From Shigella phage 75/02 Stx, in the sequence record KF766125: DNA of 60,875 bases; one strand, written 5' to 3'. Position 1 is the stretch's first letter. Every line of letters starts with the position of its first letter. Under the pieces are notes generated by a model. That model worked only from the letters and a program-made list of their open reading frames with translations. It was not told where the DNA came from and ran no database searches. Both the position numbers and the translations under genes were made by a program. Positions 2,457 through 10,013 of this stretch are shown piece after piece.

Positions 2457-3238
2457 GCTGCCACCTTCTGCTCCGTGGCTTTCTGTTTCAGGAATCCAAG
2501 AACCTTCTCTGCTTCGGCCTGGGACAGTTCTGACGACGCCCGAATGTAGCGGCGAAATATCTGAGAACAGAGCGGCAAGAGGTCGTCATCCCACGTTTTT
2601 TCCATGGAAGTAAGAAGGGCGTTAATTTCCGACATGGTCTCTTCGTTAACCGGGGTGATGTCGCGTTCCGGCTGACGTTCTGTAGTATATGCGGTATTTT
2701 CGACAATGCGTTCGGCTTCATCCTTGTCATAGATACCAGCAAATCCGAAGGCCAGACGGGCACACTGAATCATCGCTTTATGCCGTAACATCCGTTTGGG
2801 ATGCGACTGCCACGGCCCCGTGATTTCTCTGCCTTCGCGGGTTTTGAATGGTGCGCGGCGACATTCATCCATCCACTCGGTAACGCAGATCGGGTGATTA
2901 CGGTCTTTGCGGTAAATCCGACATGTACAGGATTCATCGTCCTGCTCAAAGTCCATGCCATCAAACTGCTGGTTTTCGTTGATAATGCGGGACCAGCCAT
3001 CAACGCCCACCACCGGAACGATGCCGTTCTGCTTATCAGGGAAGGCGTAAATTTCTTTCGTCCATGGATTAAGGCCGTACTGGTTGGCAACGATCAGCAA
3101 TGCGATGAACTGCGCATCGCTGGCATCACCTTTAAATGCAGTCTGGCGAAGAGTGGTGATCAGTTCCTGTGGGTCGACAGAATCCATGCCGACACGTTCA
3201 GCCAGCTTCCCTGCCAGCGTTGCGAGAGCTGTACTCAT
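2453..3238 (-). CDS. bet: Single-strand annealing protein Bet (Red-beta)
   Basis: 261 aa, lambda Bet-like throughout; overlaps exo start by 4 nt as in lambda. Confidence 0.97.
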
Positions 3239-3243
3239 CTGGT

Positions 3244-3540
3244 TTATACCTCTGAATCAATATAAATCTGGTGGCGGGCAATGGTTTCAACCATGTACCG
3301 GATGTGTTCTGCCATGCGTTCCTGAAAATCGACATCGTCATCAAATGCACGGGCAATGGCTTTTTTGCTGGCTCCATGACGTTGCAGATTATCGATGCAC
3401 AGCGATTCAAACAGGTGCTGGGGCAGACCTTTTTCCAGGTCGTCCGCCAGTTCAGTCTCATTTTCTTCACGGGCAATTTGCCGGTAGTGTCGTGCCCATG
3501 ACTGCTCTTCAATGCGATCGGGGATAAGCCAGGCATTCAT
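3244..3540 (-). CDS. gam: Gam, host RecBCD inhibitor (short form)
   Basis: 98 aa matching the lambda Gam C-terminal 98 residues (QSWARHY...[10 protein letters not shown]...IDSEV). Confidence 0.9.
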
Positions 3541-5585
3541 GATTTATCACCTCCAAAATTTTCAAGCCTGTTGGCAATCATGATTGCGATATCAGGGATT
3601 GCTGGCGCTGTTGCGACGCATGCAGGGTTTGCGCACAAACCATAGACGGCTGCAAGCACGAGTTGCCTTTTCCAGTCGAAATCTGCTTGCTCTGAATCAT
3701 CATTATTGTCAGAAGCATCACTATCTGGATCGATGTGAACAACCGAATCGTGTTCCTGAGTTGTATCAACAGCATTTTTCTGAATGTATTCATTCTTCAT
3801 TTGTGCCTGGTCATCTCCAGCAGCGGTCTCATTTTCTCCAAAAGTTTCAGCGTAAGTTTCATCTCCCATTACTGGACCACAGTCAGGGCAATGCCCGCCA
3901 CTGTTCTGACCGCATGCGGTGCAAACCTTTTCCACTTCCTGTTGCATTACTGGCCCAGGCTGTTGCTCTTCCGGTCCGTTTTGTTGCGTATCCGGGCTGT
4001 TTTGTTCCACTTTGGATTGATTCTGGTCCTCAGTGTCGCGAGTCTGGATCCCCTTCACCCACTTCGGGTCGGTTGGGTCGCTGATGCCTTCAACGAACTC
4101 CCCACGAGAGGCAGCCAGCAATTTGTCTGCATCGACAGGATTTTTGGGCAAAATGTTTTTCCTGGCTTCATAGAGTTCTGCTCTCAGTTCCTGGTATTTC
4201 GTTTCTACAGATGAGACATTTTCCAGTGATTGCGTGTCCGCATTATGTTTAACTGGAATTTCTTCCACTGATTCAGGCGCTGCCTGTTCATTAGACATTG
4301 CGTCCGATGTTTGCTGCTTTTCTTCATCGTCATGTATCTCTTCTGCTGTTCCGCGCTGCGGCATCGGGGCTGATGAGCGACCGCAGGCAATTTCCACGAT
4401 TTCCGGATCCGGGTTAGAGTGATCGGTTTCGGTCAACACTTTGTTGAGATATTCAGTCACGCGCGCCGGGATAGCCTCAATGCCAATTGGTGCTTCTTTC
4501 ACTGAAGCCACCACAATGGCGCGGGAATAATCCAGCCCACCGGGCATGGCGATGAATTTGTCACGGAAAACAGAAAAGGGCGGTTTATTCTCTGCAACGA
4601 TTTCTTCAACGCGTTTTGCATGTGCAGGGTGCAGGTTATAAATATCCACATCCATTGAACGGGCCAGAACGCCAGTGGCAATGTCTCGCGCCAGTGATGC
4701 CTGATTGTGGGTAAAGCCTTCGCCACGATCGGTAAGATTTCCGCCGCCAGCGTTAGCACCGGAAGGCGTACGGGTGATGCCTGTAACACAATTTCCTTTC
4801 TGCCATTCTTTTGTCAGCAATCCCTGATCCACATAGTCTGTTTTCATCCAGGTGGAGATGAACTTGTCGAATTCGGCCGGGCCGATATGACGGGTTGTTG
4901 AGTGAGAGAATGCCTTTCCAACGGATTGTGCCAGTCTTCCCAGATGATAATTCGTCAGCTTATCCAGTTCTGGATGTGAACGCACAGCAGTAAGCAGGCT
5001 CTGAAGGTAACTGTCTTCTGTGTCCATCTCCAGACGAATCACCTGATTACGTTGTTCTGGTGTGGCGTGATGCCGGTATTTTCCATCTTCATCCTTGCTG
5101 AAGAAGAAGAGGTGAAGGAAGCGATGAGTAAGGCTCAGAGTGGCGACGGGAATTTCACACTCAGAACAGTTATCGTCGCTGTCCGGGGATTCGCTTTTCT
5201 CCACATCATCCGGAATAGTTCCGTCCAGGTTATCGTTGTCATCGCCAGCAGTTGTGGCATCTTCACCGTTGATGTTGTCATCGAAGGGGATAGCCATCAT
5301 GGTGATGCCATCGTTACCGCCTTTTTCATAGCGGTTGCAGAATTCAGTATCAAACACGCCTTCCGGTGGAAGGTCATTCACGACGGGGAAATTTACACGA
5401 ACGGGTTTTTTGAAATCATCCTCGTCGTAGCCTGCATCGTCCATGGCTGCAATGCAGCGGGAAACTGCGACAGAAAGTTTTCTGGTATCAGCCCAGAAAA
5501 AACCGCCTTTGATGCCAAGGCGTTTTCTGACTTTATCGTTTTTTGCTTCGCAGTGCAGTGCAAAAGTTTGTTTATCAGCGCTCAT
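3537..5585 (-). CDS. Large hypothetical early protein, acidic, with C-terminal Cys cluster
   Basis: 682-aa uninterrupted ORF translationally coupled to gam; D/E-rich low-complexity stretches; [16 protein letters not shown] motif; no family recognised. Confidence 0.7.
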
Positions 5586-5663
5586 TGTATTTAAACCTCT
5601 GGCTGGGTTAGAATTGGCGGCCCTTTGTCTGATTTCTCCGAATACAGTGACGCAGGGGGTAGT

Positions 5664-5692
5664 CCGGTAGCCTGCGCTGCCGGATTTTTTAT
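5664..5692 (+). terminator. Hairpin plus T-tract facing into the minus-strand operon
   Basis: ccggtagc/gctgccgg stem (one G-U), loop ctgc, then atttttt. Confidence 0.35.
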
Positions 5693-5693
5693 T

Positions 5694-6080
5694 TCAGTGT
5701 AAGGTTGCTTGGTTTGTTGTTTTGTGAGTTGTTTTTTTCTTTTCATGCTGGCAGTCAGAGCAGTTGCATTCGCCATTTTCTCTGAGAAGTTGAAGTGCCA
5801 GGGTCAGTTCCTGAATTCTTTGTGGATCAATATGACTGTCGACAATTTCAGATGCAGCATGAATATATGGGCTGGTGGTTTTGCAATATAAACCGAAGGA
5901 AACAAAGCGACTGTCTTTATATTCGTTATTTCCAACTTCTGTAAGCACTGAAAAAGAAAATACAAAGTCGATTTTGTATTCTTTGCATATTTTACTGATG
6001 CGTTCTGCAATTTCTTTGAGTTCATTTATTGCATCAGGGCTGGTTTCGGAAAATATTTCATTTTGCGCAAGTTCTTTCAT
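5694..6080 (-). CDS. Hypothetical protein
   Basis: 128-aa ORF in an AT-rich segment of the pL operon; Cys pair CNCSDC near C-terminus. Confidence 0.5.
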   Translation of the reverse strand: MKELAQNEIFSETSPDAINELKEIAERISKICKEYKIDFVFSFSVLTEVGNNEYKDSRFVSFGLYCKTTSPYIHAASEIVDSHIDPQRIQELTLALQLLRENGECNCSDCQHEKKKTTHKTTNQATLH

Positions 6081-6165
6081 TTTGATTTTTCCGTGATTGA
6101 TAATTAATGCGGTTTTTATTTCGGCTTGTCTGTTACATATATGGAAGGTGTATTTTAATTACTCG

Positions 6166-6387
6166 TCACAACGACTCTGCTTTTACGGGTAAGCCATCGC
6201 GCCCGATGAATACTTTAATCATGCAGTTGGTAATGCATGTTTTTGTAGTCAGGCTACGAATATAGAGCTTTCTCTTTTCAATATTGTTTGCTGAAGCGAT
6301 ATATGTGCGGCCTTCATGAAGAACATAATCGCCAGGTGTCACGCACTGACGTGGTATTTCATCAGTTCCGAAGTGATGAGCAATCAT
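6166..6387 (-). CDS. Hypothetical small protein
   Basis: ORF with GGAG Shine-Dalgarno 6 nt upstream of the internal ATG at 6387. Confidence 0.4.
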
Positions 6388-6561
6388 AATTATCTCCATT
6401 TTCACAAATGAACTTTGTTGATGCGGTGCCTGGTGCCTCCAGGTGACGTTAACCAGTTAACAATTAACGCCGGAGCAGGGGATGATGATTTTCCGTGACA
6501 TCCTGTAGGTTTAACTGTTCCGCGTGCGCATAGCCGCATTCACCGCATCATAAAATTCACT

Positions 6562-6605
6562 TTTAAAAAGGGCGGACATCAGCAATCGGCAAACCGATGT
6601 CCGCC
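6562..6605 (-). terminator. Intrinsic terminator in pL operon (tL-like)
   Basis: Perfect 10-bp stem ggcggacatc/gatgtccgcc with 15-nt loop; on the minus strand followed by CUUUUUAAAAG. Confidence 0.5.
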
Positions 6606-6718
6606 AAAGAGGATATTGATACATGGATGTTGCAGCGGGGTTGTCACTCAGGCGTCTGGGGCGATTTCTATTATTTACGATGCACTTGAAACATTCCTTG
6701 ATCGAAAACTTTCATCTG

Positions 6719-7096
6719 TCACCGACGGAACATCGAGTAAGCAATAACATTTAACACACACTCTAAATAACAAGGGGTGGGCTTGATACCGTTCTTTTCA
6801 AGCTCACTCGTAATCACCTCCAGAAGTCGTGCGCCCATGAGAATTGTCTTGTGGGATGAAGCTATTACGCCGTCGCTGATATTGCTGTTTATTTCTATTG
6901 CTTCATTTTCACCATTCGCGCTAACTTCGGATATGTTATTTTCACTCTCCTGTTTCAGAGCTTTTTCTGCCATCCGGATGCGTTCCTGCGTTGCGGAGTT
7001 TGGGCTAAGTCGATAAACCTGTCTGGCATCTTCCAGAAGCAGGGCGATAATGTGCTTCAGTTCTGTTTCGTTCATAGTTAACTCCGGTAGTTGCAA
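6719..7096 (-). CDS. Hypothetical protein
   Basis: 125-aa ORF, same strand and operon as N. Confidence 0.55.
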   Translation of the reverse strand: MQLPELTMNETELKHIIALLLEDARQVYRLSPNSATQERIRMAEKALKQESENNISEVSANGENEAIEINSNISDGVIASSHKTILMGARLLEVITSELEKNGIKPTPCYLECVLNVIAYSMFRR

Positions 7097-7106
7097 TTTA
7101 TTAATA

Positions 7107-7823
7107 TCAGGCGGTCAGCTCTTTAAGCTTCTGAACTGCTTTATTCATTTCATCCATACAGTCGATGAATTCGTCCAGTTTAAGCTGCATTTTTCCGGCG
7201 GCCTGAAGAATTTCAAGTTTTAAGGGCGCAAGTTTTTTGTTGAATACATCATCTTCCTGGCGTTTTTTCTCCGCAATTTCGGCGGCTTTCAGCAATTCTT
7301 CCGCCTGCTTTCTGAGTATTTCTGGTGAAGGTGAAACTGATTTTAGGTTATTCATTTCAGGTTCCTGTTGTTGCAGAATTAATTTGTTGCATTCTCTGCG
7401 TGAGCGTTTCATCGCAGATTCGCACTTCTTGCAATAAATGGCTCTCCCGTCACGTTTGCTGGCATCTGAATAAAAATCATCGACTGATTTTGTCTGCCCG
7501 CATCTGGTACATAATTTTGATTGAAGGTCCTTAATGATTGTGACGTTTCCTTCCCGCTTGGGATATCCATATTTTTTGTGGCGGAAAAAGGTTACTCCGT
7601 TACCAGAACCTTCTTTTCTGACCTTAAATACAATGATGCTTTCCCGTTTATCGATAAAATCTATGAGCTGGTTTCTCTCCTTTCCTGACAGTTCGGCAAA
7701 TGTCTTAACTTTTTTAGTAACTTCCGTAAGGCGAACGCCGTCAGGCATTTTTTCAACGAAGTTTTTAATCTCTGCAAGCGGACGCCATAATTTTTGCGGC
7801 AAAACTGAAGGCGTGGTCATCAA
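7107..7823 (-). CDS. Hypothetical protein with CxxC...CxxC zinc-ribbon motif
   Basis: 238-aa ORF immediately downstream of N; CTRCG...CKKCE; K/E-rich coiled-coil-like C-terminus. Confidence 0.6.
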   Translation of the reverse strand: MMTTPSVLPQKLWRPLAEIKNFVEKMPDGVRLTEVTKKVKTFAELSGKERNQLIDFIDKRESIIVFKVRKEGSGNGVTFFRHKKYGYPKREGNVTIIKDLQSKLCTRCGQTKSVDDFYSDASKRDGRAIYCKKCESAMKRSRRECNKLILQQQEPEMNNLKSVSPSPEILRKQAEELLKAAEIAEKKRQEDDVFNKKLAPLKLEILQAAGKMQLKLDEFIDCMDEMNKAVQKLKELTA

Positions 7824-8096
7824 TCACCTCGCTGTTATTGTTCCGGATTTGCGATAGCCAGCTGCGTAAAGTGCAGTGTTTGGAAGACAAGTAGAGCCTT
7901 CATATTTTCTGGTTAATGTCGTTATCGTGACTACTTCAGCTCGCATTGCGGCTTTGCGTTTGCACTGTAAGTACACCCGTGAAGGTGTGGGGCGGTGCAG
8001 TTTATCAGCGCTTGATGCCTCCAGACTCTGAAGCTCAGCCCGGTGTGCTCTGCGGCGGGAAGCTGCGGTGCCTTTAAATTCTGTTTTTCTGGACAT
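7824..8096 (-). CDS. N: N-like transcription antitermination protein
   Basis: Arg-rich motif ASRRRAHRAE near N-terminus; C-terminus ALYAAGYRKSGTITAR resembles P22-type N (ALYAAGHRKSKQITAR); GGGAGA SD 5 nt upstream of the ATG at 8096. Confidence 0.8.
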   Translation of the reverse strand: MSRKTEFKGTAASRRRAHRAELQSLEASSADKLHRPTPSRVYLQCKRKAAMRAEVVTITTLTRKYEGSTCLPNTALYAAGYRKSGTITAR

Positions 8097-8212
8097 AGAT
8101 TTCTCCCGAATAAACTTTGGCGATGCAATCTCGAAGCCTCCCCTGAGATGATTGCTTCGGCATTGCACCCGACAGCTTATGCGGTTGGGCGATCTGGCTT
8201 TGCAGCCACGTA

Positions 8213-8241
8213 GTCGAGTGTTCGACGTTGTTTAAAGAGCT
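8213..8241 (-). promoter_or_regulatory. nutL-like site (boxA + boxB)
   Basis: Minus strand reads AGCTCTTTAAACAAC (rrn/phage boxA-like) followed by GTCGAacacTCGAC hairpin; lies between putative pL and N. Confidence 0.5.
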
Positions 8242-8284
8242 TTCCAATTGGGACCGCGTTGTTATCGGTGACCTGTTGGTAAAA

Positions 8285-8330
8285 TGATTATTAACCGTTG
8301 GTTAGTGTTAGTCAATAACTCAAAGTTAAA
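8285..8330 (-). promoter_or_regulatory. pL promoter with OL operator palindromes
   Basis: Minus strand TTGACT-17 nt-AATAAT; palindromes TTAACCGTTGGTTA and TAACTCAAAGTTA overlap spacer and -35. Confidence 0.45.
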
Positions 8331-8458
8331 ATTATTGTAGAGGCATTCTATGTTTTTGATTTTTAGTTAATTATTATTGCTTGTTCGGTGAGCGACGGTT
8401 ATCAAGTATGAAGGGGTATAGAAGCTAGGATAGATGAGTTTTGGCTAGCTGGGTTAAT

Positions 8459-8485
8459 AAAAAACCCGGCTCTGAGGCCGGGGGA
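8459..8485 (-). terminator. Intrinsic terminator downstream of cI
   Basis: cccggc/gccggg stem with 6-nt loop, followed on the minus strand by U6. Confidence 0.6.
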
Positions 8486-8490
8486 GAGGG

Positions 8491-9261
8491 CTAAAGCAGA
8501 ACTGAATACCAGAAAACTTTTCCGATAATCTCCACGCTTTGAGTATCTGCTTCTTCGTCAGGGTACTCTTCACTGTTATAACTGCGTATGATTAGTTTTC
8601 CACCGGGGCGTCTGTACAATAGCTTTATACGCTTCAGTTTTTCATCACCGACACCAGGCTGTGCGATGGCGTAGAGTTTGCTGTCAACAATACGTTTGTT
8701 GTTTGTGTCTACTGCGATTGTTGTTCCATCTGGTATCACGGGTTCCATGCTATCACCAGTAGCCGGAAAACAAAGCACACCAGAACCATCACTGTTAGCT
8801 CCGACACGGCGCAAGGTTGCTTTTGAGAAGCGTAATTTAAAACCATTATGATCTTCGCAATGAACTCTTCCGTCACCGCATGCAAACTCAATGTCTTTCA
8901 GATATGGCACCTCAACTTCATCATCTCGTAGTGGTGTATTTCTGTCCCAAGTTTCAAGGGAACCCCATTCTGATTCGTTTGGAATAGAAGGTCGCTGTTT
9001 TACGGATGGCTCGTTACTGCCATACTCCAACCACTCCGGCTTCACGGAAAGCCAGTCACTAAGTGCCAAAATACTTGTTTTTTCTGGAATTGATGCAGAA
9101 TTAAGCCATTTCCAGATCCCCGGTTCAGAGATATCAATGCCTCGCAGTTTCATTGCATTCTGAATCCGCTTAGCCTGACCGCGTCCGCCCACACCTGCAT
9201 CTAATAATGCCTGTAGTAGTCTCTTTGAGAACGCTTCTTTTAGTTCATCTTTTTTAACCAT
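8491..9261 (-). CDS. cI: CI-type prophage repressor (HTH + S24 LexA-like peptidase domain)
   Basis: 256 aa; C-terminal GDSMEP active-site motif with downstream Lys; divergent from cro across an operator region. Confidence 0.9.
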   Translation of the reverse strand: MVKKDELKEAFSKRLLQALLDAGVGGRGQAKRIQNAMKLRGIDISEPGIWKWLNSASIPEKTSILALSDWLSVKPEWLEYGSNEPSVKQRPSIPNESEWGSLETWDRNTPLRDDEVEVPYLKDIEFACGDGRVHCEDHNGFKLRFSKATLRRVGANSDGSGVLCFPATGDSMEPVIPDGTTIAVDTNNKRIVDSKLYAIAQPGVGDEKLKRIKLLYRRPGGKLIIRSYNSEEYPDEEADTQSVEIIGKVFWYSVLL

Positions 9262-9716: not shown

Positions 9717-10013
9717 ATGTCACAAACAAGTTACAGCAAACTGTCGCAGCGCGATATCGATCGCGCTGAAACGGATTTACTTATCAACCTGTCAGCTCTG
9801 ACGCAAAGGGGACTGGCGAAGATGATTGGCTGCCATGAATCGAAGGTCAGTCGTACCGACTGGCGATACATTGCGGCGATTTTATGTGCGTTCCAGATGG
9901 CATCTGATATCAGTCCGATCAGCCGGGCGTTCAACCATGCCATTAACGTTCATGCAAATAAAAAACGTCCGGTTGGGGCCGGACGTTCTGAGCAAATCCT
10001 GATGAATATTTGA
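9717..10013 (+). CDS. cII: CII transcriptional activator
   Basis: 98 aa; C-terminus NKKRPVGAGRSEQILMNI matches lambda CII (NKKRPAATERSEQIQMEF). Confidence 0.9.
   Translation: MSQTSYSKLSQRDIDRAETDLLINLSALTQRGLAKMIGCHESKVSRTDWRYIAAILCAFQMASDISPISRAFNHAINVHANKKRPVGAGRSEQILMNI

Follow-up and report, generated by a model that had tools for sequence, protein, structure and literature searches.

The nuclease domain of RecE, solved as 3H4R, has been given as starting at residue 564, and the long region in front of it has been described as "of unknown function" (PMC11611040) and as "large, dispensable" (bioRxiv 2022.01.13.476211). The role of this N-terminal part has been open since the 1980s, and it affects the performance of RecET cloning; a passage of PMC11611040 that cites Fu 2012 states that full-length RecE is better in linear-linear recombination than the nuclease domain alone. 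Nuclease-less "RecE-2" proteins of lambdoid phages are already on record, their role unknown, in a Genome Res 2025 paper (PMC12315714), which further describes DnaQ-like nucleases in Rec modules. The present analysis concerns the interval from 3537 to 7823 of a 60,875 nt stretch of Shigella phage 75/02 Stx (sequence record KF766125), the whole of which is called the window below, and chiefly a protein of 682 aa encoded in that interval. On sequence comparison, this protein is almost certainly the N-terminal region of RecE without the PDDEXK nuclease.

The 682-aa ORF (3537-5585, minus strand) was found where it had been predicted, between gam and N, and both flanking genes were confirmed by Pfam. 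None of the ORFs of the interval had been assigned to a family from the letters alone, but this did not survive homology searches with BLASTP, Pfam, NCBIfam and PHROGs. Residues 51-584 align with residues 43-546 of K-12 RecE at 55% identity (BLASTP), and identity to the RecE of Rac-SA53 is 62%. Pfam Exonuc_VIII (PF06630) matches at 5.9e-13 (49.6 bits against a cutoff of 25), phrog_607 matches at 6e-256 over profile positions 1-618 of 883, and the NCBIfam model PRK09709 (exodeoxyribonuclease VIII) covers positions 1-593 of 877 with 749 bits, which is below its equivalog cutoff of 1269. The similarity to K-12 RecE stops at residue 584 of the window protein, and nothing in the protein aligns with RecE past residue 546. 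No Pfam match to the DUF3799/PDDEXK nuclease domain was found in it, and its AlphaFold2 (AF2) model has no nuclease-like domain. A PDB profile search reached 3H4R only via the nuclease-bearing members of the alignment, and PDB sequence searches likewise returned the nuclease of other family members only. A match to a characterised family with a mundane role had been named beforehand as a refuting outcome; RecE provides such a match in name only, because the part of it that is matched has no known function (PMC11611040; bioRxiv 2022.01.13.476211).

Four parts can be distinguished in the protein, all encoded on the minus strand. Residues 1-100 (5286-5585) form a small alpha/beta N-terminal domain, and residues 145-410 (4356-5153) an all-alpha core with a Gly-rich loop, which is the best-conserved part of the family. 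Residues 555-569 (3879-3923) carry a CxxC-x7-CxxC zinc ribbon (CTAC...CPDC) that is kept in K-12 RecE as CNACGQTGGDNCPDCG, its four cysteines being invariant in one alignment. The original prediction had noted a C-terminal cysteine cluster; the cluster is present, but as the RecE ribbon, upstream of where a nuclease domain would start. Residues 635-682 (3540-3683), in place of the nuclease domain, make up a helical tail named here GLCANPA after its core motif; it is about 45 aa long, opens with (F/L)DWKRQLV(L/I) and comes after an acidic linker. The acidic stretches that had been reported are three linkers with 28-39% D+E, and the net charge of the protein is -56. In the AF2 model, run with a 60-sequence alignment, confidence is good for the alpha/beta domain, for the all-alpha core, which includes its Gly-rich loop, and for short helices at 457-493. 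The ribbon and the acidic linkers are disordered or of low confidence, and the tail is modelled as two helices with a pLDDT of 54-68. A BFVD search gave no significant match. The homology search and structure prediction that had been recommended for this protein thus assigned it to the RecE family, but gave no function from the fold, since no fold match supplied one.

The ORF is joined closely to the gene that follows. Gam is predicted to be translationally coupled to it: the TGA of the 682-aa ORF overlaps the ATG of gam (ATGA), and the GGAGGT ribosome-binding site of gam lies within the last codons of the ORF. At its other end, an 11-bp inverted repeat (5661-5686) lies in the 108-nt gap between the upstream gene, ORF128, and the start of the 682-aa gene; it is terminator-like on the plus strand only, so that termination of pL transcription is not expected there.

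Interruption of the large ORF in close relatives had been set beforehand as a refuting test. The ORF was found to be uninterrupted from 79% identity upward, and E. coli and Shigella versions of 680-700 aa are numerous in the protein database, with 100% coverage down to that identity. Among 5426 complete E. coli genomes, at least 79 have the junction with gam (84-100% identity). Pairwise dN/dS (Nei-Gojobori) is 0.22-0.30 over the whole ORF; it falls to 0.08-0.17 for the folded blocks (residues 146-410 and 461-520) and to 0.12-0.14 for the tail, and reaches 0.5-1.1 in the acidic linkers (0.5-0.6 in the one that precedes the tail). The 682-aa form is an established protein type and, as judged by these ratios, is under purifying selection.

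An exhaustive search without profiles, run against 1.84 billion representatives, recovered 217 members of the RecE-N family, as the proteins with this N-terminal region are called here. Among 60 aligned members, Pfam recognised DUF3799 (PDDEXK) in 16, a Rv2179c-like DEDD 3'-5' exonuclease in 10, RNase_T in three and RecT in two, and the 85 representatives of at least 450 aa include 21 with the RecE nuclease and 21 with the GLCANPA tail. Four kinds of C-terminus occur among the relatives, namely a PDDEXK nuclease (5'-3'), a DEDD nuclease (3'-5'), RecT as a fusion, and the GLCANPA tail. A phmmer search with the tail, the consensus of which is [YF]xQQLTIAALQGLCANPA...[DE][DE][IL]PxMA, found it in 26 representatives, some of them just 25-30% identical overall to the 682-aa protein, and the only profiles matched were phrog_607 and phrog_26058, the latter at its C-terminus. 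Since the tail is common to proteins as distant as this, it can be described, from the alignments, as an old alternative C-terminal module. The tail was also considered as the remnant of a lambdoid gene once located upstream of gam, but the last 98 aa hit only four records, all POCJ13-type, in a tblastn search of 50,697 phage records, and Pfam and PHROGs return this family only.

The gene contexts of the family are varied. A position in the early-left operon, near the recombination genes and xis-int, is seen in the window and in loci L003, L005, L007-L013, L015 and L016. In the Rac-like prophage L010, a 68%-identical protein is found in the order KilR-x-RecE-N-Gam-Bet-Exo-Lar-...-Exc-Int. In L011, L012/13 and L015/16, more distant tail-type proteins, which bear the precomputed Pfam labels YdfE_N and YdfE_C, are encoded directly ahead of xis and int, with no large gene in between, and no phage exonuclease or annealase is present. 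As these tail-type proteins have neither enzyme nearby, the idea that the tail serves to dock lambda Exo or Bet was rejected as a general rule. In L018, a Rac-like prophage with no annealase nearby, RecE-N is fused to a DEDD (Rv2179c-like) 3'-5' exonuclease (P0191, 5001-7418). A further protein, P0192 (703 aa), is listed among the family fusions, which comprise RecE-N::RecT, and RecE-N::DEDD in annealase-less Rac-like prophages.

That the RecE-N protein serves as a non-catalytic accessory factor at DNA ends, or at intermediates of recombination and replication, is given about an even chance. The 682-aa gene occupies the position of a Rec module and is coupled to gam, the RecE-N-Gam-Bet-Exo order is repeated in L010, and the better linear-linear performance of full-length RecE also speaks for a link to recombination. 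The RecE-N module would then be an autonomous scaffold or targeting module, fused to a nuclease in RecE and standing here beside Gam-Bet-Exo. The mechanism is the weak step of this explanation, and several points weigh against it. Tail-type members exist without any phage recombinase, so that a phage nuclease partner is not needed and a strictly recombination-related role is weakened; the charge and the three acidic, disordered linkers would suit a decoy or an inhibitor equally well; pLDDT is below 50 for 216 of the 682 residues (about one third) of the AF2 model, and just 54-68 in the tail; and the proposed split of the operon into immediate-early and delayed-early genes, described below, rests on a predicted terminator. 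A broader version, held as a tentative possibility rather than a probable one, is that the RecE N-terminal region is an autonomous and widespread phage early protein, a module for targeting DNA ends or host factors, and that the POCJ13-type arrangement is a natural split RecE. Evolution would have plugged the module into three different enzymes or more (a PDDEXK exonuclease, a DEDD exonuclease and RecT), or have capped it with GLCANPA to work alone, and in the POCJ13-type arrangement it would cooperate in trans with lambda Red or modulate host nucleases or defences. If true, this would open a way to the function of the two-thirds of RecE that have been called "dispensable".

Among the alternatives, the one that survives best, although it is considered unlikely, is that RecE-N inhibits a host nuclease or defence, either as an acidic decoy or DNA mimic or by binding to RecBCD or to systems of the restriction or retron type; its gene would then serve anti-defence rather than recombination. 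The net charge and the disordered acidic linkers, which evolve fast, would fit such a role, as would the tail-type members that stand alone in recombinase-less prophages. It has been suggested that recE contains a function that acts against RecBCD as Gam does, since Rac has no gam (bioRxiv 2022.01.13.476211), and the neighbouring Rac gene racC is a blocker of a retron toxin (bioRxiv 2020.06.22.160242). However, conservation is best in the folded core and the tail and not in the acidic stretches, and the gene adjoins, and is coupled to, a bona fide Gam, which would make a simple Gam-equivalent role redundant; there is also no PADLOC match, although the PADLOC library consists of defence and not of anti-defence proteins.

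Far less probable is a functionless, decaying recE remnant, in which a lambda gam-bet-exo cassette would have replaced the nuclease domain and recT. The DNA homology of the gene to Rac is patchy (3841-4874 only), homology of the lambda type starts within 21 nt of the gam start, like a recombination joint, and databases call the protein an exonuclease though the nuclease is absent. Yet the frame is intact at 682-700 aa down to 79% identity, dN/dS is low overall and about 0.13 in the tail, and the tail is shared by proteins of unrelated prophages that are only 25-30% identical, so it is not read-through junk; the remnant reading is largely refuted. A working exodeoxyribonuclease VIII is the least probable reading of all, as it is backed by annotation names only (POCJ13, PhiR5_2, RefSeq and PHROGs), while the PDDEXK/DUF3799 domain is carried only by other family members, alignment ends at RecE residue 546, the NCBIfam score falls short of its cutoff and AF2 gives no nuclease-like domain; like the remnant, it is essentially excluded.

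The interval is a Rac-prophage-type early-left segment with a 933W-type N gene on one side and a gam-bet-exo module of the lambda type on the other, and all of its genes and elements belong to the leftward pL operon (minus strand). The order from pL is N, ORF237, ORF118, terminator, leader, kilR, ORF128, the 682-aa gene and gam-bet-exo. Upstream, the block is bounded by the N antiterminator gene (7824-8096, minus strand; Pfam N_peptide, 5.9e-26), and N together with nutL shows 83% DNA identity to its VT2-Sakai counterpart. Downstream it meets gam (3244-3540, minus strand), a 98-aa GamS-type gene (Pfam Gam, 1.7e-62) that starts the lambda Red module; the genes after the 682-aa gene are gam, bet and lambda exo rather than recT, and no RecT homologue was found by tblastn of the window. 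DNA similarity to 933W/VT2-Sakai-type phages breaks off at 3519, 21 nt inside the 5' end of gam, and returns at 7824, the N stop, which makes the interval a true replacement. The genes said to be replaced were kil, cIII, ea10 and ral; for the first three this is borne out by the homology gap and by tblastn, in which the VT2-Sakai Kil, CIII and Ea10 queries gave no match within 3537-7823, while ral was not searched. No CIII homologue was found by tblastn anywhere in the window, the sole weak match (22648-22707, E 0.002) being spurious, as it falls inside a SASA esterase gene. A CII-like activator gene (cII) is present at 9717-10013.

Bases 3000-8500 match the lambdoid, Stx1-converting Shigella phage POCJ13 (NC_025434) at 99.5% identity and with equal coordinates. 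Beyond this, most of the interval is found in only three phage records: POCJ13 again, in its GenBank copy, and phiSTEC1589-Stx1c and PhiR5_2, which show about 91-92% identity to the interval. PhiR5_2, which has the same module, has K-12 MG1655 as its recorded host. The comparison with other phages that had been suggested thus separates these three, which share most of the interval, from the 933W/Sakai type, which does not. Five relatives are syntenic for int-DUF4222-exo-bet-gam-RecE-N-ORF128-kilR-ORF118-ORF237 while their immunity regions differ; three of the five have an intact N, and in the other two (L008 and L009) it is a truncated remnant.

The four smaller ORFs and the internal terminator that had been described in the interval are all present, and two of its five genes, along with the terminator, belong to known families. 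The second of the two genes is kilR (6166-6387, minus strand; 73 aa as annotated, 79 aa and 6166-6405 as listed), which had been counted among four unknown ORFs. The 73-aa protein is, by its match to NF008465 (3.1e-46, 155.3 bits against a cutoff of 92) and to phrog_294, the Rac-type KilR, an inhibitor of FtsZ and cell division. It is 90% identical to K-12 KilR and of equal length, from which it can be expected to inhibit FtsZ and division, and its dN/dS is 0.10-0.15. With KilR present, host killing would be taken over by a non-homologous analogue and not be lost, and the expectation that early-operon genes at this position act on host functions has KilR as its example.

Upstream of kilR is a conserved leader of 174 nt (6388-6561, minus strand) with 83-87% DNA identity to Rac and long invariant blocks; an Rfam match to STnc100 is sub-threshold (32.9 bits; gathering score 47). 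The leader is preceded by the predicted intrinsic terminator (6562-6605, minus strand), recognised by folding and conservation and consisting of a 13-bp stem followed by CUUUUU. The hairpin (6605-6569) has a folding energy of -24.6 kcal/mol (z = -4.9), and none of 200 shuffled sequences folded as well; that a consensus scanner did not report it is due only to the loop, which is longer than 8 nt. It is kept in five loci (the window, Rac of K-12, Rac-SA53, PhiR5_2 and phiSTEC1589), and the stem in phiSTEC1589 has one compensatory double change, from C-G to U-A. In K-12 Rac, the annotated sRNA KilS has its 3' end at this hairpin. The body of KilS is mostly replaced in the window, the terminator alone being in common. 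Between ORF118 and the terminator (6607-6674), the window is without about 300 nt that are present in L003 (5128-5499) and L005 (5300-5670), and this region holds an annotated 69-aa ORF on the plus strand in L008 and L009.

ORF237 starts 3 nt after N, and no intervening terminator was seen, for which reason N, ORF237 and ORF118 would be immediate-early genes. Without N, transcription would stop at the terminator (6605-6562), and kilR and everything downstream of it, the 682-aa gene and gam-bet-exo included, would depend on N antitermination. KilR would block host division after induction, and an induced Stx phage is predicted to express a Rac-type division inhibitor under N control.

ORF128 (5694-6080, minus strand; 128 aa) occupies the slot of racC and ydaE in Rac and matches phrog_2016, of unknown function, at 7.9e-69. 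Its homologues are found in E. coli only, at 65-98% identity, and its dN/dS is 0.18-0.39; it was considered as RacC or YdaE, but is similar to neither. In phiSTEC1589-Stx1c, a ydaE-like gene (annotated as Rtr1/RPAP2 family; L005, 4685-4858) is kept between kilR and ORF128, and this gene is absent in the window. ORF118 (6719-7075, minus strand; 118 aa, or 125 aa and 6719-7096 as listed) matches phrog_2982, also of unknown function, at 5.8e-67, is syntenic in all relatives and has a dN/dS of 0.29-0.42. A PADLOC scan gave a match only for ORF118, and this was at chance level (0.0047).

ORF237 (7107-7820, minus strand; 237 aa, or 238 aa and 7107-7823 as listed) matches phrog_2539, has no Pfam match, and has 68 homologues across Enterobacterales, with a dN/dS of 0.05-0.26. 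It carries the CxxC...CxxC ribbon that had been noticed in one of the small ORFs, its two halves being CTRC (residue 104) and CKKC (residue 130). The ribbon is an optional insert that is missing in about half of the homologues, and a relationship to Lar/RalR was rejected, as the Lar-like PHROG match (1e-9) spans the ribbon alone. The AF2 model (pLDDT 84) has a winged-helix-like N-terminal domain and a long C-terminal helical hairpin; the first 90 residues have the topology H-H-H-beta-beta with a pLDDT above 90, and Foldseek relates this domain to the BlaI, RTP, PadR and Fur winged helices with probabilities of 0.8-0.97, although these matches are weak (E at least 0.06). In Kluyvera and two other distant prophages, ORF237 homologues lie directly after N genes of different types (N36, N_peptide), and those listed as adjoining N are at L019 5001-5738, L020 3559-4296 and L021 5001-5597. 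In a Providencia prophage the homologue is 1.8 kb downstream of N in the same operon, and a further homologue is listed at L023 3501-4241. ORF237 may be a previously unrecognised early regulator linked to N, or a gene for a DNA-binding partner of N.

The window locus can be compared with several known systems. With lambda it shares the slot between N and gam and the presence of a division inhibitor, Kil in lambda and KilR here, but there is no sequence homology in the interval to lambda kil, cIII or ea10, and no equivalent of cIII was found. The Rac and window KilR proteins have their leader and upstream terminator in common; the window kilR is carried by an inducible Stx1 phage under predicted N control and that of Rac by a cryptic prophage, and ydaE and racC, which follow kilR in Rac, are absent in the window. 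RacC, the blocker of retron RcaT, and ORF128 are both encoded by small, fast-evolving genes immediately upstream of a recE-type gene, but have no detectable similarity.

The class of nuclease-less proteins labelled RecE-2 or YdfE_N/YdfE_C resembles the window protein in lacking a nuclease, in its early-left position near xis and int, and in having an all-alpha core and a GLCANPA tail. The window protein differs from the YdfE-type proteins in that its N-terminal domain is of the RecE type (PF06630) and not YdfE_N, and, unlike them, it is close kin of Rac RecE and co-occurs with a full Red module. The K-12 ydfE of Qin is an IS2-truncated pseudogene; by BLASTP, its fragment is not similar to the window protein, and P0248 and other YdfE_N/C proteins of full length are the only link. 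What is added here to the nuclease-less RecE class (the conserved alternative tail, the data on selection and the gene contexts) is detail and does not form a new category. Annotation is misleading for hundreds of "exodeoxyribonuclease VIII" proteins that have no nuclease domain.

The closest system remains Rac RecE. Over about 540 residues, the Gly-rich core and the ribbon among them, its N-terminal region (residues 1 to about 590) and the window protein are 55-62% identical, while residues 1-50 and 100-250 have diverged, and both genes belong to an early-left operon, downstream of kilR. Where Rac RecE continues into the PDDEXK nuclease domain and its gene is followed by recT, the window protein ends in the GLCANPA helical tail of about 45 aa and its gene is followed by gam-bet-exo. 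Selection keeps the N-terminal part of RecE even where the nuclease is gone, beside lambda Red as well as in recombinase-less prophages, which provides a clean genetic system in which to study the function of this part.

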